A stretch of 64,000 nucleotides of DNA from a virus: IMG/VR virus record IMGVR_UViG_3300024496_000030, positions 1 through 64,000 of that record, one strand, 5' to 3'. The notes beneath the pieces are model-generated. The model ran no database searches, was not told the DNA's origin, and saw only the letters and a program-made list of their open reading frames with translations. The translations under genes were made by a program, and so were the position numbers. Positions 2,347 through 61,080 of this stretch are shown one piece after another. Each line of letters starts with the position of its first letter. The first letter of the stretch is position 1.

Positions 2347-5047
2347 GACTGTAATTAAACGGACTTTCCGCCCAAGCAAAACCAATATAAGTAGCTGCGT
2401 TGGAGTTGACGCTTGCGTCAGTTGTCCGCAGCTTGAAGCCGTTACTGGTGATGTCAAGCAGATCGGCGGTGCCTTCTGCGTCGGACAAGTTTGGATACAG
2501 CGGATCGTTGTCCACGTTGTAACCTTCGCGGGCTGTGTCTACCAATGTCCAGTTGCCAGTTGTACTGGAACATTTCAAAAGAATTAGACGCGGACGGAAT
2601 CCCAGATACACAAAGCTGCCATCTGTCGATCCATTGCCTGTGTAACTGAACCCATTACTGTACCCGACTACTGTGCTCCAGAGATATGCAATGTAATTCG
2701 TACTTGCAGCGTTTAAGTTATTCGTTGCGTTGTTGGTCACCATGAACTGGGTCGATGACCAGTTGCCGGTGCCAAACGGTGAGTTGGTGTTGGTGGACGA
2801 TGCCGTGCCATCCGTCTGGTTGCACTTCAGAAAATGGGTGGTGCTGGCCAGAGACCGGTGCCAGATGTAGAAGCTGCCGCTGCTGCGAGACTTGATCCAT
2901 GCCATGTCCACGGCCACGCCAAGAGAATGGCTGATGTTGCGGTTGCTGGTGTTGTCGCCTGCATACCCAACAATGTCAAACCCAGCCGTAACGCTCTCGT
3001 TCCAGCACCAGGCCACGCTGTTACCTGATGGAGCCGAGTAGGTGCCTTCTGCCGCATCGCTACTGGTGCTGATGATGGCGTTACCGCCACGGGTGGTGTC
3101 GAGCAACTGATGGTTGGTGCTGTTGTTGGCGCGGTCCTTAATCCAGATCAGGTCACCACCAAAGGTGAGCGCTTCTGCCGTCGAGCGGATATTGGCACCC
3201 GTGTCGGTAACAACTTGGAATTGCGTAGAAGGCTTTGTGACTAGTGGCGCCGGGAGGTTTGCGGTGCAGAGGGCTTTGAAGCCGCTGGGAGCGGTGTAGG
3301 CGAAACTACGAGCGCCTGTGTTTAACACGCAGCTTGTGCTCACATAGTCGTCTTTACCCCAAGAGGGGAAATAGGTTCCCGACAATCCTGAGTATGCAGG
3401 GTTAGTGCCAGTAGCAGGGTTTCCGCTTTCTTGCCAGGTTCCATTCTTTGAGAAGAATATCCTGCCAGCATCAAGATCAAGGGCCACCCCAACTACGTCA
3501 CCGTTAGTGTAAGTGCTGTAGCCTGTAGTTGTGTTGCTATTGTTATTTGCCTTGTAGCCACCTGATGCGTAAGCGTAAGCCGTTGAAGCACTGCCGAGAA
3601 AAGTCGAAAGGCTGCTGTCGCTTCTAGTGACACCAGTGCGGCAGGTTCCAGTAGATGTGATCGCAACCTCGAAATACCATTTCCCGCTACTCACTCCAAT
3701 TGTTCCCTGGGCTAGCGCATAGGAAGCAGTATTGGATTGACTCAGATCAAGATTGCCATTGCTGTAAGTTAGCTGGGCTGCAGAGTTAGCAAGCGGATTC
3801 CAAGTGCAATAGTTTCCCCTCACTTCCCCGCCCGCACCCGTATCAGTGCCGCTCGTAGTGGGAACGTCTACGAGGCTGTCGTTGCCAGCGGGAGTAATTC
3901 TAACCAACAAACTTCCATTGACATAAACTTCAAAAATGCCTGATTCGTGGCTACCTCCGACCCCGGCACTCATTCCTAAGCTGGTGAGTGTGCCGGGAGT
4001 ATTGGTTTGGTAATATTTATTATAGGCAGAGCTGTACCCATTCAGCCCATATGTCCCCGTTGCAGTTACTGCGGATCCATTGACAGATAGCACCGCTCCG
4101 GTGGCCGGATTGCCTAGCGCCCCATTGGCCATATTGCCATAGACAATTAGTAGTGAGTTGTAGGCTATAGGGGCAGTGAATGTAGCCGTGTAAGCCTGAT
4201 TGGTAGTGGAGGAATTACCCACTATTCCATCGAGTGCTCTATCAAGGTAATCTCCAGCGCCCGTGTAAGTATTTTGACTTGTGGTGGAAACACTAATATT
4301 GTTCGGCGTCCAGTTGTTGCCGTTGTTCGAGCCGTCCTTGCCCAGCGTGGTCGCGGTGTTAGACGAATTGTCCGCGAAATCGAGTTTGAACCCGTTGGTC
4401 CCGTAGGTGCCGGTGTACGCCTTGGGCACCCATACGCCTGTGGTGGCGTCGAATTGGCCAAAGCTGGTGGGGTCTAGGGCTTGGCCATCCACCAGATGCA
4501 CATCGGCCAGATAGGCATCGCAATAGCTATAGCCACTGGATCCCCATGTAGTCCCTATACGATTGTTTGAGTTCGCATAAATAAATCGACCAGTATCGTT
4601 TTGAGAGGGATAGACCGCCGTTGAAAAAGCTGTAACCCTAACCCCATTGACAAATAGCCGATAGCGATTGCTGCTTGTTGCATTAGTTGTGTCCCATACA
4701 AGGACGAAGTGATACCAGGCAGAAGGATCGCGGAATACTTGGCTTGTGGTCAGTGCAACATTGTAGCCAGGGTTTGTGACCGTAAAAGTATCGCCGGCAT
4801 CAAACTGAATGTAAGTCGCGTAGGTCGATGACCCGTCGTAGCCAGAGAATAAACAGCTTGTGGCTCCCAGTTTTGTCCGCTTGCACCACCATGAAAGTGT
4901 TGACGTTGTGTTGCTGGTGTTTGCGGATGAAACGGTGCGCCCGCAGTAGGCACTGTCACTACTATTAAATCGTAAGCTCCTGCTAACGTTGTACCCTGTG
5001 CTTTGACCGCCTGCACCCAGTAATGCAGGATTATGAAAAATCGACAT
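2336..5047 (-). CDS. tail fibre/receptor-binding protein with LamG/ConA-like and SPRY-like domains
   Basis: 903 aa, S/T/G/N-rich; FRDPSAWYHFV (LamG-like), SSGKWYFEV..GDVVGVALDLDAGRIFFSKNG (SPRY-like), C-terminal FAWAESPF. Confidence 0.8.
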   Translation of the reverse strand: MSIFHNPALLGAGGQSTGYNVSRSLRFNSSDSAYCGRTVSSANTSNTTSTLSWWCKRTKLGATSCLFSGYDGSSTYATYIQFDAGDTFTVTNPGYNVALTTSQVFRDPSAWYHFVLVWDTTNATSSNRYRLFVNGVRVTAFSTAVYPSQNDTGRFIYANSNNRIGTTWGSSGYSYCDAYLADVHLVDGQALDPTSFGQFDATTGVWVPKAYTGTYGTNGFKLDFADNSSNTATTLGKDGSNNGNNWTPNNISVSTTSQNTYTGAGDYLDRALDGIVGNSSTTNQAYTATFTAPIAYNSLLIVYGNMANGALGNPATGAVLSVNGSAVTATGTYGLNGYSSAYNKYYQTNTPGTLTSLGMSAGVGGSHESGIFEVYVNGSLLVRITPAGNDSLVDVPTTSGTDTGAGGEVRGNYCTWNPLANSAAQLTYSNGNLDLSQSNTASYALAQGTIGVSSGKWYFEVAITSTGTCRTGVTRSDSSLSTFLGSASTAYAYASGGYKANNNSNTTTGYSTYTNGDVVGVALDLDAGRIFFSKNGTWQESGNPATGTNPAYSGLSGTYFPSWGKDDYVSTSCVLNTGARSFAYTAPSGFKALCTANLPAPLVTKPSTQFQVVTDTGANIRSTAEALTFGGDLIWIKDRANNSTNHQLLDTTRGGNAIISTSSDAAEGTYSAPSGNSVAWCWNESVTAGFDIVGYAGDNTSNRNISHSLGVAVDMAWIKSRSSGSFYIWHRSLASTTHFLKCNQTDGTASSTNTNSPFGTGNWSSTQFMVTNNATNNLNAASTNYIAYLWSTVVGYSNGFSYTGNGSTDGSFVYLGFRPRLILLKCSSTTGNWTLVDTAREGYNVDNDPLYPNLSDAEGTADLLDITSNGFKLRTTDASVNSNAATYIGFAWAESPFNYSRAR

Positions 5048-23402: not shown

Positions 23403-23442
23403 TTGGACGTAGTATCAGTCTAATTCCGACAATACTCTAACC

Positions 23443-33890: not shown

Positions 33891-34116
33891 TTTTATAAAT
33901 ATACCTAGATATAACGATTTTAGGTGCAATCAATACAGTACCAACGCCAGGAGAAACCCCCTAACTGCCTTAGAAATACCCATTTCATGGTAAAAATCCG
34001 GGCAGACATCAAGCTCGCTCTGCTCGCAGGCGGGTGCGAGAGGAAAAAAAGAAAGGGGCGGGGGATATGCTCCCTCCGGTCGCGTTAACAGCCGGAAGAG
34101 AGAGTTCTATTCGGTT

Positions 34117-35345
34117 GTGTTCTTTATTTTATTTATCGTCATGATCTACAGCGTGGAGATCAAGGAAGCGGGCGATGATTTTAGCCAGGCGTATATGTCT
34201 GGCTGCGAGGAGAAGTTTCATTCGGAGAAGGAAGCAGAAGAATATCTGCTGACGTTCGAAGAATGGGAACGTCCGATGCTTTGCATTCGGAAGTACGAAT
34301 GAAGATTAGGGGGAGCAACCGCTCCCTCCGGTCGCTTTTTGAGTTTTCCACAGGCTATTTTTACCCTATTTCCACCCTATTTTCCCTCAAATCCCTGTCA
34401 TACCAAGGCTTCTGACTACTATTTGCCTGGACATGTGTCACAACATGGCTTGCACTTTTTCCACAGGCATCAAATCTTTTTACTGGGATCTCAGCGACGA
34501 TTTGAAGGCTGTTTGGCTGTTTGTCAGCCTTATCTTCAACCCTGATTTTTATATAACTAGAAATACTTTTAGCAAGATTACCCAGAAGATTGCCTCCAGG
34601 AGCTATTTATTCCTCCTAGATGCAGTCCTCAGACTGCTGTTCTTTGCTTGTTTTCTCATGGAGAAGTTCGGTGCTGCAGTGTGCTGCGTTGCTATCGGCA
34701 TGGCAGCTTTCACTCAGTTAACGCTTCACTTGCTTGATCAAGCTACGGCTGAGCAATGCAAGAACCATGCGTGGCCTGCACACGCTGACCAGGTGCACCG
34801 TGACTGGTGCATCGCTAACAACTACGAACTCTGATCTCATGATCACGATTACTACTGAAGAAGGTCTCCTTCTCACTGATCAACGTGGCAACTATCTATA
34901 CGATGGGCGCCAGGGTGATCCTGTTCTCATCGAAGCGCCAGCAGGTCCAATCCGCTTTGGGTTGGAGGACATGCTGCGTTTCTGGACGACGTACTGCCAG
35001 TACGGCGACTATCAACTTCACCTGTGGTGAGTTTCCGCTCCCTACGGTCGCTTTCATACTGTATTAATCAGTAGAGAAAGTTCAGAACAAATTGTCCATC
35101 ATTACCTTCTCATTCCAATGAATCTCTTTAACAACCTTGTCAAGGCCAGCATTGCCGGTGGCGTTGTCATCGGTGGTGCTGTTGCCTACGCCAAGCTGAA
35201 TGACGAGCAGCGTCAGAAGCTCAACTCTGGTGTCAACAGACTGCGCCGCAAGGTGTCAGATCTAATTGCACCAAATGATGGTGTTTATACCATCCCCAAG
35301 GAAGTCGAAGCGGAGCTAGAAGCTCTGCTCAACGACGACAATTGA
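34117..35345 (+). CDS. cluster of small early hypothetical genes (34141-34302, 34658-34834, 34839-35030, 35118-35345)
   Basis: Short plus-strand ORFs separated by hairpins; starts approximate. Confidence 0.5.
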
Positions 35346-35419
35346 TGGTCCCTCAGAGGGAAGCGCCATGCTTCCTTCTCTGTGATCTTCATTGATCACG
35401 TTCTTCGCATATTCCATCC

Positions 35420-35644
35420 ATGGAATCTTTCATCTACGAGAAGGGCAACGACGGTTATCTCGTCACCATCCGTGGTGATTTTGCAGAGATGACCAAGGTT
35501 GACCTTGACCGTCAGGTGTCCAAGTACATCCGCTTGGAGGCACCTGTCGAGCATATCCGCTCCAGTGTGAAGAAGCTGCTGCACCAGGGTTATAAGCTGA
35601 GCAATCAGCTAGAACTTGGTTGGCAGCGTTTCATCGAAGCGTAG
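35420..35644 (+). CDS. early hypothetical protein
   Basis: ORF track; its stop codon abuts the hammerhead. Confidence 0.55.
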   Translation: MESFIYEKGNDGYLVTIRGDFAEMTKVDLDRQVSKYIRLEAPVEHIRSSVKKLLHQGYKLSNQLELGWQRFIEA

Positions 35645-35710
35645 GACGAAACCGGAGGGTGCTATCCGCTCCCTTCGGTCGCTCCCTGCTATGGGGAGCC
35701 TGATGAGTCC
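35644..35710 (+). ncRNA. type II hammerhead ribozyme
   Basis: GGAC-GAAA-[CCGGAGGG/CCCTTCGG]-TC^-[GCTCCCT/GGGGAGC]-CTGATGA-GTCC; all core nucleotides present; predicted cut after C35680. Confidence 0.9.
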
Positions 35711-35724
35711 CTGCTTTGCTCACC

Positions 35725-36576
35725 ATGTCACTTTCTGCTTTCCTCATTAACTTCATGAACCGCCACCGTGATCAGCTACCTGCTTACGTTGGCATTACTC
35801 TTGGCATGGGTATCGGCGGACTCCTGTGCGTTAGCTTGAACAAAGCGATTAATGCCAGGATCCTTGCAACCTGTGACAAGAACCTGAATCAAATCATCTA
35901 TATCAAGACAGCAGTAGGTGATAGCTACGGCTGTGTATCCAAGATGGTATTGAACGGGCCACCAGCTCCGATCAAACCATGAGAAAGATTTTATTCAATT
36001 CATTGATCTTAACGATCATCTTTTTGTTCTTCTGCCTCTAGTCATGACTGAACAAATGTATAGCCACGACACAATCTGGCTTCTTCTGCACAACATTCCT
36101 CTCATGGATTATGCACGCCAGGAGGAGCCAAAGCTGTGGAGAAAGTTCATGGAACTTGTTTCCAATGAAACTGCTCAAGGCTATCCCGATACATGGAACA
36201 CTACTTTCCTAATCAATAAGATTGCGGAAGATCTAGGTTCCTATCAACTGCTTCTAAATATCTGGTTGCAGATAGAGGAGCCGTTGAATGATGTTCTTAA
36301 TCCCATCCAGCGTGACTGGATTGATGCTCAACTATGAACAACTACACCTTTTATCTGCCTGGAATCAACAAGCTGACTGGTGTAAGCCAGGAGGATTGGG
36401 ATTTCCTTTGCGAACGTGCAGCAGAGAACAACGTTCTACCTGCCACGCTTGCCGCCAGGATTATCGCCAACGAGTTGGCTCAATGGCGTGATGAGATTCA
36501 TTACGCCGATCAACAGGAAGGGCTTCGTGCAAATGAAGCCATGAACCAAGAGAAAGTTATTGAAGAGATTGTTTAA
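35725..36576 (+). CDS. three early hypothetical genes (35725-35982, 36044-36337, 36334-36576)
   Basis: ORF track, coupled organisation. Confidence 0.5.
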
Positions 36577-36684
36577 TCTTTTCTTTATCTTTCCAGATGT
36601 CTGCACTTTGGGATCTAGGCCTTAGCTTAGTTCCCTTTCTGCAGGCTTCACTTGCCTGCTTTGTACACCTACCTAGACAACACC

Positions 36685-37134
36685 ATGTCTGCTGCTAACA
36701 ACGGAAACCTGGTCGGTACCATCGTGTCCGACATCATGACCAAGAATCCCAACGATTCTCTTTCGGTCACACAGTTCCGTGTTGCTCCGCTCGATGCCAG
36801 GGAAGAGGATTCTCCGCTGCCTGTCATCGCTTACAACGGTATCGGTGACAACATCGCCAAGCGCTACAACAAGGGTGACACTGTTGCCCTGACGACGCGC
36901 CTGCGTTATGTGACCTGGATGACGCCAGAAGGTGAGCCCCGTGGCCGCATGGAAGTTATTGTGACTTCCGTAAACACGGTTCGCCTTGGTCAGATCTCAA
37001 CAGCCCAACGGACTGCTGAAGCTGCTGGTGTCATTGAAGCGAATACGGTCAACAAATCGCTTCATCCTGTCGCCGCCGCTGCCACCAGGGCTCCTTATGC
37101 GCAGGAACCAACCGCTGAGGTTGTTCCTTTCTGA
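36685..37134 (+). CDS. ssb: single-stranded DNA-binding protein
   Basis: NNGNLVGTI..F.VA..KGDTV..RLRY..W...G..R..EV; C-terminal EVVPF. Confidence 0.75.
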   Translation: MSAANNGNLVGTIVSDIMTKNPNDSLSVTQFRVAPLDAREEDSPLPVIAYNGIGDNIAKRYNKGDTVALTTRLRYVTWMTPEGEPRGRMEVIVTSVNTVRLGQISTAQRTAEAAGVIEANTVNKSLHPVAAAATRAPYAQEPTAEVVPF

Positions 37135-37246
37135 GCAGAAGGTCAGTCCGACTCTTGCACTTAAACCTTCCGGGTTGGTACAGCTGTACTAGCCCGGTGG
37201 TTTTTCTGCAGGATTCATCTCCTGCACAATCCTTTGCACATCACCA

Positions 37247-37636
37247 ATGGGCCTCGATCAGTACGCCTACATCAAGTTTCAACCTGAGTATGAGAACTGG
37301 TTGTTCCTTGCGGAATGGCGCAAACATCCCAACCTCCAGGGTTGGATGGAACGCCTATGGCGCAAGAAGACGAACAGCAGTGAATCATACGAGAAAGATA
37401 CATCAATTAATGATGAATTCAATGGAGTTGAGCTTGAACTCACCCTTCAAGACATTCTTCAACTCCAAATGGACATCAGAGATAACAATCTTGATGGCGG
37501 TTTTGGCACCACAACAGGATTCTTCTTCGGTTGTAATGCCGATGATGAATACAAGTGGAAAGATCTTAGCTTCTGTGATAGAGCTAAGGTTGCTCTCAAG
37601 AATAACCACACTGTTTATTACAACAGTTCTTGGTAA
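37247..37636 (+). CDS. conserved phage protein (MGLDQY/WRKHPNLQGWM family)
   Basis: Recognisable motif, ..GFFFG..VYYNSSW. Confidence 0.7.
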   Translation: MGLDQYAYIKFQPEYENWLFLAEWRKHPNLQGWMERLWRKKTNSSESYEKDTSINDEFNGVELELTLQDILQLQMDIRDNNLDGGFGTTTGFFFGCNADDEYKWKDLSFCDRAKVALKNNHTVYYNSSW

Positions 37637-37721
37637 TCTCTCCATCAATCAAACTCACTTACCTTTCATGAACCATGAACAAATCTCTACAAGATCTCCA
37701 CCCGGTTGAGTTCATTCTTGT

Positions 37722-39123
37722 TTGCATCCTCTTTGTTGCAGCAACAATCCTCAACCTATGCACACCCTCCAAACCTACCGAAGCGAAACACCTATCGAAC
37801 GAACCGAAAGGTTCAACGAATGGTACGAACGCTACACCGAATACGAAGGTGAGCCGCTCACCATCACGGTCCACCAGGTCTACGAAAACTATGGTGGACC
37901 AGAAGAAGGAGGCTGGACCTTCCGTTGCGGTTACCCAATCGAAACCGTCTGCATCTTCTCGAAAGCGCAAGCCCTCAGGGTTCTCCACGAACTCCACGAG
38001 AAGTACGACACAGAAGAGTATGACGACGGAACCTACGACATCTGCTTAGCCCAGGGCTACGCTGAGTTCTACCCTACGGTCCGTCCTCACTACGAATGAT
38101 CTCTTTGCCTGCACCAATCATGACGATTCCTGAGAACATCTTCAAGCTTCAGCTTGATTCCATGCCTACAGAGAAAGACGCTGATCCATACGGTGATGTT
38201 CTGTTCTTCTCCAAGAAGAGTGGATGGATCATCACCAAGCTGGAGGATGCACAGGACATGATCGAGGAGTACAACTGTACTCATTGGACATGGACTCCTG
38301 AAATCCCGTCAGCTGACGACTATGAACTGGATTCCACCAGGACTGAGCAGCTTAGAAATACAGGCTGGTTGAAAGATTAATAGGATTCTCAATAAACTTC
38401 AGTTATCAAGAATCCAACTAAACCTACTCACTTCTTGAGTACATATGAACTAGCGGGCGTCATGTTTTCTTTCATGGCGTCCGCTTTATCTTGACGAATT
38501 GCATACCAAGTCTGCTTATCGCTACGGATTGCCGTAGCCTTGACTTTGCTCAGGTAGGTGATCAGTGCGCTTTGCATGACTTCCTCGTGGGATCTGTATC
38601 TATTTATACAGTACCAAGAGGTCCAGGGTATGCATAGTTCACATCGTTACACAATCATGAACGAATCTCCGTACATGGGTTGGGTTGTTCCTTATTCCTG
38701 GCAAGAGCCAGAGTATGAGGACGATGAACTCGATCAAGTTCCAGAAGATGAAAGTGATTTTGATGACGAAGGGTTATTCACTCTTCGTTAATCACACCAT
38801 CTTCATTACCACTCTGCACACTCAACATGTCCTACAACATTACCGAGATCAAGGACTTCTATACCTTGATCTACGCCATGGAGAAGCGGGTCAAGCAGCT
38901 TCTCATTGACGACAGTAAGAAGCATCAAATGGATGCAGAACCTTCCTGGTCCATGGAGATCATTGAGGATGAAATCATTCCAGCACTGGAGAAGTTCTTG
39001 GAAGTCTGGGATGATGATCCAACTCCTCAGTATCTCTACGACAACACAGGTGGTGAGCCTCCAGTGACTGCCAATGAGATGCTCAACGCAGCATGGAAGC
39101 AGCACCTGGAGATGCGCTCCTGA
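37722..39123 (+). CDS. early hypothetical genes (~37758-38099, 38096-38380, ~38657-38791, 38827-39123)
   Basis: YGGPEEGGW motif in the first; acidic small proteins. Confidence 0.55.
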
Positions 39124-39873: not shown

Positions 39874-39919
39874 CCTGAGCAGATGATCCCTATGCATCTG
39901 TTCCTTTGCTTTGCACCCC

Positions 39920-40713: not shown

Positions 40714-42989
40714 ATGAAGACTTCATACATCAAGATTGCTTACCGTAATGAAGGTGAATGGCAAACCACAACCTTCAGGACAGATGATCCTCAGTGGCGT
40801 GAAACATTCTTGACTCTGCGCAACAGCTTTCAATCTGTCCGTATTCTGTACAGCTAACCATCGCCATGGGTAAGAAGAAAGACAAGAAGAAGCAAGAGAA
40901 GGAACAGCTTCCTGTTTCTAATCATGCTCTCAAAATTAAATACATCCTGGATCATTTCAACTTTGCCAAAGTTCAAGAGGCAATGGTTGCATTGAACTGG
41001 GTATGGCAACACATGGATGATCCAGATGATCAAACCATGCGCGTTCCTACCATTGAACGCATGAAACAAACTGCTGCACATCTCCTTTACAGCGCAGCTA
41101 CTAGCAAGGAACGTTACTTTGCAACGGGTGGATTCCATGCTCAGCGTTATGAGTATGGCGATCTCTCCTTGCAATTTGTAGTAGCTGAGTACGATACATG
41201 TGATGACACCATGTAATCATGCAAAACTATCCTCGTTTTTTTCTGCATCGAAACTCCGACAAAACACGCATTGCTAAAGCCATGAACAACATTGAATGGG
41301 AATCCAACGACAGCACCAAGGATCTCAGCAAGACTGATGCTCCTACCATGCGTCAACTAGCTGGGATGCAGCTCGTCGCCAGGATGAAAGAAGCTGCAGA
41401 CAAAGTTGGTGCTGGCTTTGTTGGTGGCTTCATTGATGAGAATGGCAACCGCTTCATGATGTCCAACATGGGCGAAGGCCACATGAAAGAACATCAAATC
41501 ATGGAGCAACTAGAACAATACAAACGTGAAGTAGAAGGAGATGCTACAGACTGGAAGTAGCTCTCAGTTACATCCTCCATGTACAACATCTGGAATGCAG
41601 CAGCCTATGAAATAACAAACATCCTCATTGATTACAACAGAAAACTAGAACTCAACCCATGGATCAAAGCAATCCGTCTCCACTGCTTCCCAGATTGGGT
41701 AGCATGGAAGACCGAACGCACCATGGGTCGAGTCGATCAACAAATTGAGCAGCTCCAGAAGGAGATGCAAATTGAACACGATAAGAAATATGTCACACCC
41801 ATCATCAGGGAGCATCAACCTGATGAGTCCAAGACGCAGCAGCTTCTAGGTGGTACTCTGCAGATCACAGCTCCCTGGTACAAACCAGAGGAGAAAAACT
41901 AATTGCGTGTACACTGCATTGAACCTGCATACAATTTACGTTAGAACCATGAAGATGCGCCAGTCCCCAGCTGATCAGAAGCAAGAACAATTCATCGAAG
42001 TACTTCGTAATGTCCATGCCACACTTACGAACCTCCTTGAGGATCCTCTCTTTATTGATAGTATTCATGGTGAACAGGAAATGGGTCTCGACCTTTCTCT
42101 TGAACTCATTGACAACATCATTGCTCGGATCGACCCCAAGGACCACAGCGCTCAGGCCGAACTGATGGATCGCCTTGAACTCACCGCTGTTGATGCTGAT
42201 TGAGTCTCATCAGACTTATTACACTGTCCAACAAGAGCCGTCTGCTTCTAGCTAGTGCTTCTAAGCTATTCATGCCGTGGTCCTCCCTGTCATGGGTGTT
42301 GGATCACGGCTTCTTTTTGCACACCATCCAATGTTCTCACCCTCAGAATACTTAACAAACCTTAGGCAGATCAGTCTCCTCAATGGACTGGTCACGCCAG
42401 TAGGTCAACTCCCTTCCATTCCTCCCATCCCAAAGATGGAATCAGCTACAGCAGGAATCCCTGTTGTAGCAACTGTTCCAGCAGCGCCAGAATGTAATGA
42501 CATCATCAATGCTGTTGCATCCTCTCCTCTTGCAATCAATCTGGCAGCACTGTTTGCAGCTGGATTGATTCTTACCATTCTTATCAAGAAGTACGGACCA
42601 TCCATCCTTGCCTGGTTCCGTGACAAGATGCAGCGCTTCCTTGCTTCTATCCGTAGCAAGATCAGTAAGCGACGTAGCAATCTGCTACAACCTTCTGTCT
42701 GCACTGTCGTGGTGATGGGCTGATGTACCGCACAAAAGCACATCACTTTTACAAAGGAAACCAGAAGTTCCTCAGGACTAAACAGTTCTGGACTGTCTGG
42801 CGCAAGGTCAGGATGGTCATTGGCATCATCTATGACAGTTGCTCCGTCATTTTGGTACTCATGAGTCTCGACCGTGTGTACAAATTCAAGAGCTGGAGGG
42901 TTGTTAAACCCTGGCAGATCGCTACTTTGGTCGAGCGTTTACCCAAGCTGTTCCGTACCCTTAGACACCACTTCACCTATGGGATCTAA
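40714..42989 (+). CDS. run of small hypothetical genes (40714-40857, 40866-41216, 41219-41560, 41579-41902, ~41949-42203, 42331-42723, 42723-42989)
   Basis: ORF track, tight packing. Confidence 0.5.
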
Positions 42990-43370: not shown

Positions 43371-44166
43371 GTGTCCTGGGGAATCCCCTTCATTCCAATG
43401 AAACTTCCTGTGACTGCTTACATCGTCATGCTTCATCATGCTGATGTAGGTACATTTGCTCCAGCTTTCCCCAATCTTGACGACGCTATTGAGTTCTCCA
43501 ATGCAATGCGCTTGGTCAACGATCAACTTGCTGTAGCTGAACCGGTGCCTTTGGTCTCCACGATGGCTCCAGGAGGAAGCAAAGTTTTAGATTGGGTCGA
43601 GCATTGATTCAACCTAATTAAATACATAAGAATCTGTGTTATCTTGTATCGAGGTAACACAGATTTTTTATGGCCGTCGTTCTATCAGTTAGTATCCCCG
43701 ATGAGATGCACGCCAGGTGGAAATCATCTGGATTTGATATTAGCCCCAGTGCGATTTTCCAAAATGCTTTGGAGTCACAGCTCACTGAAACCAATCAACA
43801 TCTCACCTACTGGAGCAATCGTGCCTTGTCTGCAGAAAAGAAACTAAAGACCATCGAGAAGTTACTGTCTGCTAGTGAGAAGGAGATTAAAAAATTCCTT
43901 TACTTTGAAGACATGTGATCTTCCTAACAATTGATTGGTAACCTGTTCGGTAGACTACAATTAACAAATGCATCTGCATTTCTATGCCTGACAGAGGTTA
44001 CCTTTTCTTAAGCGACGATCAGCGACTTGATGTTGCAAGCTTGCTAACAACGCTTAAAGGTCTCGGTATTGTCCGAGATGAAACAGATTTTCAAAGGTTT
44101 GTCACTGGTTGTTTCTTCCGTGGTCTTTATGATTACAAAAGAGATCTAACTCGCAGCGACTGCTGA
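43371..44166 (+). CDS. hypothetical genes (~43398-43607, 43670-43918 possible RHH/CcdA-like, 43984-44166)
   Basis: 43670: VVLSVSIPDEMH..ISPSAIFQNAL resembles a ribbon-helix-helix. Confidence 0.45.
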
Positions 44167-44394
44167 ACAACTAACCAAGAGAATCATTAAGACAATATAA
44201 ATAATACGATAAACAATTGAATCCATTTGATCAAGCTACCAGTACTGCTGCGTAGCTTCATTTTATTTTGCAAATAAATTTAGAAAAGCTTCTCTTGGAG
44301 AACGGCCCACCGCCACGTAAGAATATTAGATATATACAAAGTAATAACTATACCAATAACACCTAACTAAATACATATGTACCATCCCATAGAT

Positions 44395-44472
44395 AAAAAA
44401 ATGGACCGGGCACCACCCCAGTCCAGAATCTGCTTTGCACACACAGCCTTCAGGATTCCTTTCTGAAGCTGC
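44395..44472 (-). ncRNA. candidate trans-acting sRNA (~78 nt)
   Basis: TAGACT -10 at 44484-44479; 5' hairpin GCAGC-TTCAG/CTGAA-G-GCTGT; unpaired GUGUGCAAAGCAGAUUC; terminator TGGACTGGG-GTGGTG-CCCGGTCCA-T7 with a G-U pair valid only on the minus strand. Confidence 0.7.
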
Positions 44473-44473
44473 G

Positions 44474-44502
44474 TTGTCAGTCTAGTCAAGTCCCGCTAGT
44501 AT
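44474..44502 (+). promoter_or_regulatory. sigma70-type promoter for the 44541 operon
   Basis: TTGTCA (44474-79) - 17 nt - TAGTAT (44497-502). Confidence 0.6.
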
Positions 44503-44540
44503 GCGCAAGCAAACGGCGCAACCTCATTTGCACACCCACC

Positions 44541-44966
44541 ATGTCTCCATTTAATTTCCAGCCTGTTCAACTGCTTGAACTCTCCGACGCTGACACTCCG
44601 AGCATTGATGTGCAGGATGGACAGCTGATCCTCACCGCTCAACGTGGTGAAGAGAAGATCCGAATCACTGCTCCTCTGCGTCAGGTTCTTCCCCAGGTGG
44701 CAGCAACAACTGTCAAGGGTCCGTCTCGATTGAAAGGGCTTCACCTACCTGGTGGCGATAAGCGTGTTGGTGAGCTGAACGGCATGGCCAAGCTCAACGA
44801 ACAAGCAGTTCGTGAAATCCGTCTCATGATCAGCGATCCGAAGTTTATCAAGAGCTTCCGCACACGCCACGCTCTCTGCTTAGAAATTGCTAAGGCTTAT
44901 AACGTTCATCCCGCTACGGTGAAGAACGTTATTGATAACGTCAGCTGGAAGCACGTCAAGATCTAA
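44541..44966 (+). CDS. DNA-binding protein with NUMOD-like/HTH C-terminus
   Basis: GELNGMAKLNEQAVREIR..IAKAYNV...V..VI....WKHV. Confidence 0.6.
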   Translation: MSPFNFQPVQLLELSDADTPSIDVQDGQLILTAQRGEEKIRITAPLRQVLPQVAATTVKGPSRLKGLHLPGGDKRVGELNGMAKLNEQAVREIRLMISDPKFIKSFRTRHALCLEIAKAYNVHPATVKNVIDNVSWKHVKI

Positions 44967-45358: not shown

Positions 45359-45371
45359 TGAGGGCTTTTTC
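45349..45371 (+). terminator. intrinsic terminator
   Basis: GCCCTC-CTAGT-GAGGGC-TTTTT. Confidence 0.6.
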
Positions 45372-45388
45372 TTTGCACATTTCACACC

Positions 45389-48981: not shown

Positions 48982-49067
48982 AAGATAAAGTATAAAGATT
49001 AATAACATTTAATTACCTGGGCACCGCAAGGGTAAGTCCCAGCTTTGTTGTATTTGCACACACCACG

Positions 49068-58384: not shown

Positions 58385-58474
58385 CTTGACATGGCATAAT
58401 GTTTAGTCTAAGCATTAAACATGCGAAGTAAAGTTTGAGTTAGACTATCTTTATATTCTGATCCACTAGCAACT

Positions 58475-60127: not shown

Positions 60128-60183
60128 CCTTCTAGACCTGGAGTAAGTCTTAAAACTGCTCCTGCACACACCACCTGACCGTA

Positions 60184-61056
60184 ATGACCGTAACCGAAGC
60201 GCTGCTTTCCGATGCTCAGCGTCTTGTGTATGGACGCAGAAGAATTATTGACACGCTCTATCAAGAAGATCCAGATAAGTTCAAAGTTTTACAGGCTACT
60301 GATATTCAATCCATCTCACTCCAGGATGATTTGGTTTGTCTGGATCTAGCAGACACCCAACTCTATATAGAGCGGGCAAAAATCCTCAAAAATTTTTGGG
60401 AGCACCGCACGCGTACCCCTTCCTACTTTGATTACAAGGTCTGGAGCCAGGCATTGAGCAGCCGCCCCTGGCAAGGAACACCTGTTGCAGCCTTGGATTA
60501 CGGTCCGTCCCAAGCAATTGATGCGCTGGAGCCTTTGCTGGGACGCCCGCCTCGAATTCAAACGGATCGTGATGGAGTACAGAAGTTGTACTTTGTTATG
60601 GAGAAAGAAGAAATGTGCAGCTGTGAATCATGGAATCAAATGCATGTTCACAGGCATGAACTTTCTGATGAGTTCTCTACTTATACCGACATAAAATTCA
60701 AGCCTATTTGTAAGCATTTACAATGGTGTTCTGCCAACATGTTGCTTCATGCAATTCGGTTTGAATCCAGGCAGAACGATAAAGAATATAACCCAAGAAT
60801 CTGTGTCTACTATTTTGATCATCGTCGCGGTTTGTTACTGTATCGCGTTACTTATGACGGTGTAAAAACAGGTGGTCAGTGGCTACCTGTTGGTGGGTGG
60901 AAAGAAAAAGCTGTCTATGACAGCAACCACATGCCAACCGGAGCTTGCTGGCAAACCTTCACCGATGCTTTAACTCAAGATCCTCCCTTCAAACTATCGC
61001 CCTATTCCCATAGCCTGGGTGCTCTGATGAATAGCACCTGCTCTAAACAGTCCTGA
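60184..61056 (+). CDS. SWIM zinc-finger protein
   Basis: CSCESW...PICKHL. Confidence 0.6.
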   Translation: MTVTEALLSDAQRLVYGRRRIIDTLYQEDPDKFKVLQATDIQSISLQDDLVCLDLADTQLYIERAKILKNFWEHRTRTPSYFDYKVWSQALSSRPWQGTPVAALDYGPSQAIDALEPLLGRPPRIQTDRDGVQKLYFVMEKEEMCSCESWNQMHVHRHELSDEFSTYTDIKFKPICKHLQWCSANMLLHAIRFESRQNDKEYNPRICVYYFDHRRGLLLYRVTYDGVKTGGQWLPVGGWKEKAVYDSNHMPTGACWQTFTDALTQDPPFKLSPYSHSLGALMNSTCSKQS

Positions 61057-61080
61057 TTGCACACCACCGCATTACTCACC

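Follow-up and report, generated by a model that had tools for sequence, protein, structure and literature searches.

A candidate small RNA gene in a freshwater cyanophage with an open strand complementary to a leader motif of the phage's own early genes

The window analysed here covers the first 64 kb of an IMG/VR virus record of 83,116 bases and ~97% completeness. Its minus strand carries the structural genes from position 1 to ~34 kb (terminase, portal-like protein, major head protein, tail proteins), and from ~34.4 kb on the plus strand carries early and replication genes—SSB, ThyX, a family A DNA polymerase, and many small ORFs. Synechococcus phage S-EIVl, with 52% identity in the portal-like protein, is its sole deposited relative, and the genome is that of an S-EIVl-related uncultured freshwater cyanophage.

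Within the early region, a gap of 374 nt separates two plus-strand operons. The upstream operon ends in a terminator-like hairpin with a U-rich run (44233–44269, plus strand; z = -2.3). The downstream operon, which begins at ATG 44541 and encodes a 141-aa protein and a 130-aa HTH protein, is preceded by a promoter-like TTGTCA-17-TAGTAT (44474–44502, plus strand) that is conserved in alignment A1. A candidate sRNA gene lies between them on the minus strand, at 44395–44474. Its position and strand make it convergent with one early operon and divergent from the next and, with a plus-strand terminator on one side and a plus-strand promoter on the other, place it in an insulated gap. The two divergent promoters are interlocked: the -10 of the sRNA (44484–44479) overlaps the -35 of the plus-strand promoter, and its -35 (44508–44503) abuts the plus-strand -10. 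At a related locus, L082, the equivalent plus-strand terminator directly adjoins the terminator of the sRNA.

Two neighbouring features deserve mention. The 141-aa protein (44541–44966) is clade-specific in its N-terminal half, and its C-terminal ~65 residues resemble the C-terminal DNA-binding part of homing-endonuclease-like proteins, a resemblance found in many unrelated phage contigs (L006–L008, L085–L098) at 30–44% identity. Just past the sRNA terminator lies an AT-rich stretch of ~100 nt (44290–44390), kept in all four lineages described below, which contains a GC box (GAACGGCCCACCGCCACG in the window, GCCGCCGCCAGG in L005, L082, and L084) followed by GTAAGARTATA. Possible roles of this conserved stretch are those of an origin, a site for protein binding, or a promoter.

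An earlier note, made from the letters of this DNA, had read from the minus strand a TAGACT box, a 5′ hairpin, an open stretch, a terminator, and a U7 run, and all of these elements are indeed present. The -10-like hexamer TAGACT (44479–44484) is replaced in relatives by TAAACT, TAAATT, TAGATT, or TACAGT—always TAnAnT—and is always 18 nt from a -35-like hexamer that reads TTGCGC in the window (44503–44508) and TTGCAA or TTGCGA in relatives. The predicted RNA of ~78–80 nt would start 5–8 nt past the -10 and end within the U7 run. It opens with a 5′ hairpin of 10–11 bp with one bulge (44443–44472), which is followed in the fold by the unpaired G/U-rich stretch GUGUGCAAAGCAGAUUC (44442–44426). 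The seed core UGUGUGUGCAAAG, 13 bases long (44433–44445), is invariant in the 11 close variants of alignment A4. Terminator scan and stem comparison delimit an intrinsic terminator, UGGACUGGG/GUGGUG/CCCGGUCCA, of 9 bp with a U-G at pair 6 (44402–44425), and both the sequence and the scan place its U7 tail at 44395–44401.

The 78-nt RNA (44472–44395) folds to -30.6 kcal/mol (z = -3.0), a value equalled by 1 of 200 shuffles, and its terminator is the top site of a consensus terminator scan of the region 40–50 kb. The seed has an unpaired probability of 0.43–0.78, about twice that elsewhere in the RNA (~0.3). That the U-G pair lets the terminator work on the minus strand only, as had been proposed, agrees with the folding energies of -16.4 versus -10.9 kcal/mol. 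The overlapping ORFs at the locus are unconserved TTG/GTG frames of 38–40 codons only. Parts of the locus are contained in 21 river and freshwater metatranscriptome runs; contigs from four of these runs cover 44225–44492 and 44423–44836, at a depth of 2–3, without strand or ends, and possibly derived from DNA.

With a pattern made from the first arm and the loop of the terminator, the whole unit was recovered from IMG/VR and JGI metagenomes in 12 distinct variants. Two further loci, L082 and L084, were reached via a profile of the neighbouring 141-aa protein (53% and 45% identical). Neither matched the RNA pattern and, as both were retrieved through a protein gene, they are independent of this pattern and provide an unbiased view. 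The resulting 14 sequence variants, all from freshwater or river samples, belong to an S-EIVl-related clade and group into four deep lineages, namely L005, L082, L084, and the window type, which comprises 11 of the variants. Common to the four are the promoter geometry, the position of the 5′ hairpin, the G/U-rich strand, the GC-rich terminator stem, and the U-rich tail. The promoter spacer is exactly 18 nt throughout, and its non-overlapping part varies in sequence; a minus-strand promoter-like site of the form TTGCxx-18-TAnAnT is thus found in five sequence versions, whose overlap with the plus-strand promoter may itself constrain the sequence. In L005, L082, and L084 the 5′ hairpin is unrelated in sequence and yet sits at the same position. 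The seed core GUGUGUG(C/U)A is kept in all four lineages. Next to the invariant 13-mer, the linker is hypervariable with 1- and 2-nt indels, which marks the stretch as non-coding.

The changes within the stems are directional with respect to the strand. Each one-sided change in the terminator gives a G-U pair on the minus strand, and changes on both sides occurred at two positions of its stem; the stems of L005 and L082 are further compensated. Counted over four in-register stem types—two of this sRNA family and two of a second family, famB, described below—all 36 stem cells are paired in the minus-strand reading, including four G-U pairs, each at a different position, versus 88.9% on the plus strand, where these four cells read C-A or A-C mismatches. 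The 5′ hairpin contributes two additional G-U pairs that exist on the minus strand only, and the minimum free energy of the minus strand is 5–13 kcal/mol lower than that of the plus strand in 12/12 variants folded. Two-sided covariation is absent among the 11 close variants and confined to the few deep lineages, and the shuffle statistic of the terminator stem alone is not significant (113/500). With so few independent lineages such stem statistics are not significant on their own, and the case is made by the consistent direction of the evidence and not by a single strong statistic. Taken at the level of sequence comparison, the four lineages establish the architecture of the gene, its strand, its non-coding nature, and the conservation of its seed, and they back the earlier reading of the locus as a discrete minus-strand gene for a non-coding RNA in which a hairpin, a single strand, and a terminator follow each other. 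A genuine sRNA gene at 44395–44474 is hence quite probable.

The terminator has a homologue in another setting. FamB is a ~125-nt unit in other viral contigs, one of them of 140 kb (L012:5551–5700, minus strand; also L009, L021, L026, L032, L037, L046, L049, L050, L053, and L054). It has a textbook promoter, TTGACA-18-TAGAAT, an internal hairpin with a compensated pair (GACGG/CCGTC vs GATGG/CCATC), and a terminator that is homologous to the one at 44402–44425, including the GUGGUG loop and in the same strand sense. FamB shows, as far as sequence homology goes, that a homologous hairpin closes small, apparently promoter-driven transcripts in the minus-strand sense. It has no Rfam match. Motifs complementary to the single strand of famB are not enriched in the 140-kb contig that carries it (12/12 vs 14/14 in the control), and no complementary motif was found at starts at the famB loci; a match between seed and own leaders is therefore not a general property of such RNAs.

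No known family accounts for the sRNA. Rfam gave no family at the gathering threshold, either in the window or in 7 related loci, and at E ≤ 10 only chance-level matches around the locus, e.g., McaS with 16 bits versus a cut-off of 42. The covariance model of Yfr1 had no match at the gathering threshold or at E ≤ 10, and that of GcvB had none. Among deposited phages, megablast and blastn found no homologue of the locus, and a protein search with the 526-aa neighbour as single query found no match. A seed-based pattern scan of viral contigs returned one extra match, GC-rich and due to chance, and a pattern scan of representative bacterial genomes returned chance matches only (e.g., within a cyanobacterial coding region) and no host-encoded counterpart. 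S-EIVl has neither the sRNA nor the leader motif at its early starts. Judged from these comparisons, a new phage sRNA family is the best reading.

On the plus strand, the sequence CTGCTTTGCACACAC at 44430–44444 is the complement of the seed, and the proposal that the seed is antisense to a motif near many early ATGs held up: between 35.7 and 61.1 kb, 11 plus-strand ATGs have a related motif 0–20 nt to their 5′ side. The predicted target sites, given with their duplex energies in kcal/mol, begin with CTGCTTTGCTCAC (35711–35723; -20.7) before the ATG of an 85-aa protein at 35725 and CTGCTTTGTACAC (36656–36668; -21.8) before that of SSB (149 aa) at 36685. The motif CTTTGCACAT occurs twice, at 37232–37241 before ATG 37247 (129 aa; -17.1) and at 45371–45380 before ATG 45389 of a PcfJ-like protein of 526 aa (-15.6). 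Between these two copies lie CTCTGCACAC (38812–38821; ATG 38827, 98 aa; -14.0), TTTGCTTTGCAC (39905–39916; ATG 39920, a YkuD-like protein of 262 aa; -19.3), TTTTGCACAC (42315–42324; ATG 42331, 130 aa; -17.3), and, in the leader of the divergent operon itself, TTTGCACAC (44527–44535; ATG 44541; -15.0). Further downstream follow TTTGCACACAC at 49053–49063 (ATG 49068, an ArdC-N/M78-like protein of 314 aa; -19.2), CTGCTCCTGCACACAC at 60156–60171 (ATG 60184, 290 aa; -22.2), and ATTGCACAC at 61056–61064 (ATG 61081, a Gp157-like protein of 198 aa; -15.4). Several of the predicted duplexes are short, with 8–10 bp. The motif-bearing leaders are C/U-rich, have no Shine-Dalgarno sequence, and usually lie 3′ of an intergenic hairpin and U-rich run, and hence mark sites at which ribosomes load de novo.

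The association with starts was quantified with the 9-mer TTTGCACAC, allowing up to one mismatch, on both strands of the 83-kb genome. Its 25 matches genome-wide do not amount to an overall over-representation; nevertheless, 7/25 fall in the -30..-1 region of automatically called starts, where 0.47 were expected (binomial p = 3e-7), and shuffled motif cores reach a mean of 0.4 and a maximum of 3. As the automatic caller chose an earlier TTG or GTG for three genes, the count by eye is higher, at 10–11. Looser scoring, by duplex energy or by ungapped matching, gave the real seed 10 good start-region partners versus 4.5–4.8 for shuffled seeds, whose maxima were 14–15. This energy enrichment of only about two-fold does not exceed what shuffled seeds can reach—G/U-rich oligonucleotides pair easily with early mRNAs, which are C-rich in general—and the signal is the specific contiguous motif, not generic energy. 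Upstream of the full set of 143 called genes, hexamers are only weakly enriched (best uncorrected p = 2e-4), and the signal is confined to the plus-strand early block. Within these limits, the association between motif and starts is a result of the sequence comparison.

Some further observations concern translation starts and early intergenic regions. Leaders of plus-strand starts between 34400 and 62000 are C/U-rich and without Shine-Dalgarno, with a GC skew of ~-0.09, and several late minus-strand genes have GGAG- or AGGA-type sites; early plus-strand and late minus-strand blocks appear to use different translation-initiation signals. A link to 16S rRNA was considered, as the leader motif plus CACCAUGG resembles the 16S sequence around CCUUGUACACACCGCCCGUCACACCAUGG and the best 16S site of the seed is this very region (-17.6 kcal/mol). 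It was rejected as not significant, shuffled seeds being equal or better (mean -19.0; 74/100). A hammerhead-core-like CTGATGAGTCC occurs twice in early intergenic or junction regions (35685–35700 and 41820–41830), with no match to Rfam hammerheads, either window-wide at the gathering threshold or within 34000–38000 at E ≤ 1.

If seed and leaders are functionally coupled, they are expected to change together among relatives. The seed of L005/G002 has no AAA (GUGUGUGCAGGAG), and its leaders read CUGCACAC or UUGCACAC, not UUUGCACAC. The seed of L084/G018, GUGUGUGUACAAAG, has an A in place of the window's G, and GUACAC leaders make up 3/5 of the motif-bearing leaders in G018 versus 1/11 in the window genome (G000). 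In 3/4 lineages, the best mean duplex is obtained with the seed of that same lineage; the fourth is represented by two leaders only. A covariation of seed and target motif, named by the earlier note as a check, is thus seen as a joint shift in composition in G018 and G002, in small numbers. Co-evolution would predict such a joint shift, and so would the concerted drift of a plus-strand element to which the copy at 44430 belongs: read on the opposite strand, each plus-strand copy of a repeated motif is by necessity antisense to all others, and copies that evolve in concert would therefore mimic a co-variation of seed and target.

From these elements, the following mechanism can be proposed. Host RNA polymerase would start at the sigma-70-type TTGCGC-18-TAGACT and stop at the 9-bp hairpin and U7. 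In the resulting RNA, the 5′ hairpin and the terminator hairpin would flank an exposed G/U-rich stretch with the core GUGUGUGCAAAG, which could pair with the C/A-rich motif (CUGC)UUUGCACAC(C) found 0–20 nt before the AUG in about eleven early-region genes without a Shine-Dalgarno sequence. This pairing site is where the 30S subunit would have to load, and the most likely effect of pairing would be a block of translation initiation, possibly accompanied by decay. The roughly eleven genes would be affected as a group, including the divergent operon of the 141-aa and HTH proteins, whose promoter overlaps that of the sRNA. The geometry of these overlapping divergent promoters is conserved, and it suggests that synthesis of the sRNA and of this operon might be mutually exclusive. 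We infer the transcript itself, its pairing in vivo, and the sign and timing of the regulation.

Our main reading is that a stand-alone minus-strand gene encodes a ~78-nt non-coding RNA that pairs with the phage's own early leaders and blocks their translation as a group, to which we give a probability of roughly 0.47; the pairing with these leaders taken by itself likewise has close to an even chance. A more far-reaching picture is correspondingly more tentative. Here, one sRNA of a lytic cyanophage would control about eleven of the phage's own early genes via a C/A-rich leader motif that replaces the Shine-Dalgarno sequence; its promoter would overlap the promoter of a target operon for two DNA-binding proteins, transcriptional exclusion and post-transcriptional repression would combine to a developmental switch, and seed and leaders would co-evolve across the clade.

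Among the competing explanations, the one that survives best, itself rather unlikely, accepts the sRNA and places its targets elsewhere, in host mRNAs or in the neighbouring 44541 operon only, with the match to the phage leaders as a by-product. The RNA gene could then have arisen by inverted use of the standard intergenic module of a hairpin plus TTTGCACAC, and C-rich early mRNAs would be easy partners for its G/U-rich RNA. On its plus strand, the locus is in fact laid out like other intergenic units, with a hairpin and then CTGCTTTGCACAC; the only about two-fold energy enrichment over shuffled seeds points the same way, as does the precedent of the phage sRNAs VpdS and PreS, which act largely on host RNAs (PMC12197685). 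However, the invariant 13-mer equals the consensus of the leader motif, and the compositions of seed and leaders shift together in G018 and G002, both of which speak for targets among the phage's own leaders.

Less probable still is that TTTGCACAC acts as a plus-strand signal—a site for a phage protein such as the adjacent HTH proteins, an RNA-processing signal, or a Shine-Dalgarno-independent ribosome-loading element. The copy at 44430–44444 would be one more such site, e.g., an upstream operator of the divergent promoters, and the minus-strand hairpin and U7 would merely stop stray antisense transcription. This would suit a motif that is strictly plus-stranded and tied to starts after intergenic hairpins, that has two DNA-binding-type proteins encoded immediately downstream, and whose copies, including the one at 44430, all drift together between lineages. 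Against this, the copy at 44430 is the sole one without an ATG after it, and it is framed by a conserved minus-strand promoter (fixed 18-nt spacer, five TAnAnT versions) and by a hairpin that has been preserved, by way of G-U intermediates, in the RNA of the minus strand. In addition, the motif is not palindromic, and a mere insulator would need neither a position-conserved 5′ hairpin nor an invariant single strand.

It is very unlikely, on our analysis, that the short transcript would serve replication by priming or activating an origin in the adjacent AT-rich region (~44290–44390). Promoter-proximal RNAs do prime or activate origins at the T7 primary origin or near lambda ori, and the predicted transcript runs toward a 100-nt AT-rich stretch with a GC box that is kept in all lineages and lies among replication genes; yet the strong terminator and U7 precede this stretch, no iterons or DnaA-type repeats were seen, and the invariant single strand and its leader match would be left without explanation. 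That the locus has no function and its hairpin pair arose by chance in a conserved promoter region is hardly credible, for although the overlapping plus-strand promoter and the 44541 leader could explain part of the conservation, both hairpins (through compensation or replacement), the U-tract, and the G/U strand have persisted in four deep lineages in which linker and loops drift. For the combination of a conserved minus-strand promoter, position-conserved hairpins, an invariant single strand antisense to the leader consensus, and a copy at 44430 with no ATG after it, the first three of these explanations appear less simple than a gene for an RNA that pairs with the phage's own early leaders.

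An RNA of this kind would have several known counterparts. Yfr1 of cyanobacteria represents a cyanobacterial setting and regulation without classical Hfq. It is likewise a short RNA in which two stem-loops flank a conserved single-stranded pairing motif and which ends in a Rho-independent terminator; its motif, however, is C-rich and its targets are host porin mRNAs, whereas the seed described here is G/U-rich and phage-encoded, with predicted targets in phage leaders. In the enterobacterial GcvB, the G/U-rich R1 region targets C/A-rich elements upstream of many start codons. The predicted regulon would similarly pair one G/U-rich strand with C/A-rich leader elements of many mRNAs, here from a single seed; the phage RNA differs in being much shorter and phage-encoded, with targets on the same genome, no known Hfq context, and no similarity to GcvB in sequence or covariance model.

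The base-pairing sRNAs known from phages belong mainly to temperate phages that infect enterobacteria and Vibrio, and host RNAs are their usual targets. Lambda OOP and P22 sar are phage RNAs of 68–77 nt with their own promoter and an intrinsic terminator, which are transcribed against an early operon and act on phage mRNAs (PMC12197685). The candidate resembles them in that it would be short, end in a terminator, and run counter to an early phage operon. Yet OOP and sar overlap a single target in cis, and the sRNA described here is intergenic—no plus-strand ORF or leader lies opposite 44395–44474—and would act in trans on ~11 dispersed sites. VpdS of VP882 and PreS of lambda are described as phage-encoded, seed-based trans regulators in the lytic programme (PMC12197685; bioRxiv 10.1101/2024.10.31.621285). 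They act mainly on host RNAs via Hfq, in contrast to a predicted regulon made of the phage's own early genes with a shared leader motif. In the literature, we found no phage sRNA described as controlling a block of its own early genes through a shared leader tag, and no sRNA described in S-EIVl-like cyanophages. To our knowledge, no phage has been described that governs a whole block of its own early genes with one seed and a dedicated leader motif. If the proposed role is true, it would add an RNA-based layer to the temporal programme of a virus whose hosts, freshwater picocyanobacteria, are of global importance. It would likewise provide a compact seed-and-tag system of natural origin with which many cyanobacterial genes could be co-regulated, and the ~78-nt sRNA family would offer four natural seed variants, each with matching natural leader variants.

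The earlier note had gone further and proposed a late sRNA, and hence an early-to-late switch, as the TAGACT box also precedes late-type genes. The boxes are present at 23417, 58405, 58441, 59102, and 59963 as named, but one also precedes the early-region ORF 43984 (box 43951). The late timing could not be upheld: TAGACT is a generic TAnAnT box with no shared -35 that is also found before an early-region gene, and the genes behind the boxes at 58–60 kb are without recognisable function. TAGACT is under-represented overall (13 vs 25 expected), and its occurrence is consistent with a preferred variant of the generic TAnAnT -10 without a -35 partner. Eight of its 13 copies are intergenic and lie 15–40 nt upstream of starts (23417, 43951, 44479, 58405, 58441, 59102, 59123, 59963), those at 58405 and 58441 as a back-to-back pair. 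The suggestion that the terminator loop GUGGUG contributes to pairing with CACCAC is also weak, as CACCAC lies between motif and ATG in 3/11 sites only and famB, for which such targets are absent, conserves the same loop equally well.

Two observations in relatives might be of further interest. In L084 (2850–2862), the terminator tail reads UCUUUCCUUUGCAC instead of U7 and contains a target-like CUUUGCAC; it is possible that this tail copy pairs with the RNA's own seed, which would make L084 a self-masking variant. In S-EIVl, two hairpin copies with the loop TTTGCAC, each followed by CCCGCTTTGACGGATCAG and a TAnAnT-like box, are found on the plus strand at 43468 and 43762 (L059:4440–4520 and 4735–4815). 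They sit on the strand opposite the early genes of this phage and may represent antisense promoters or RNAs.
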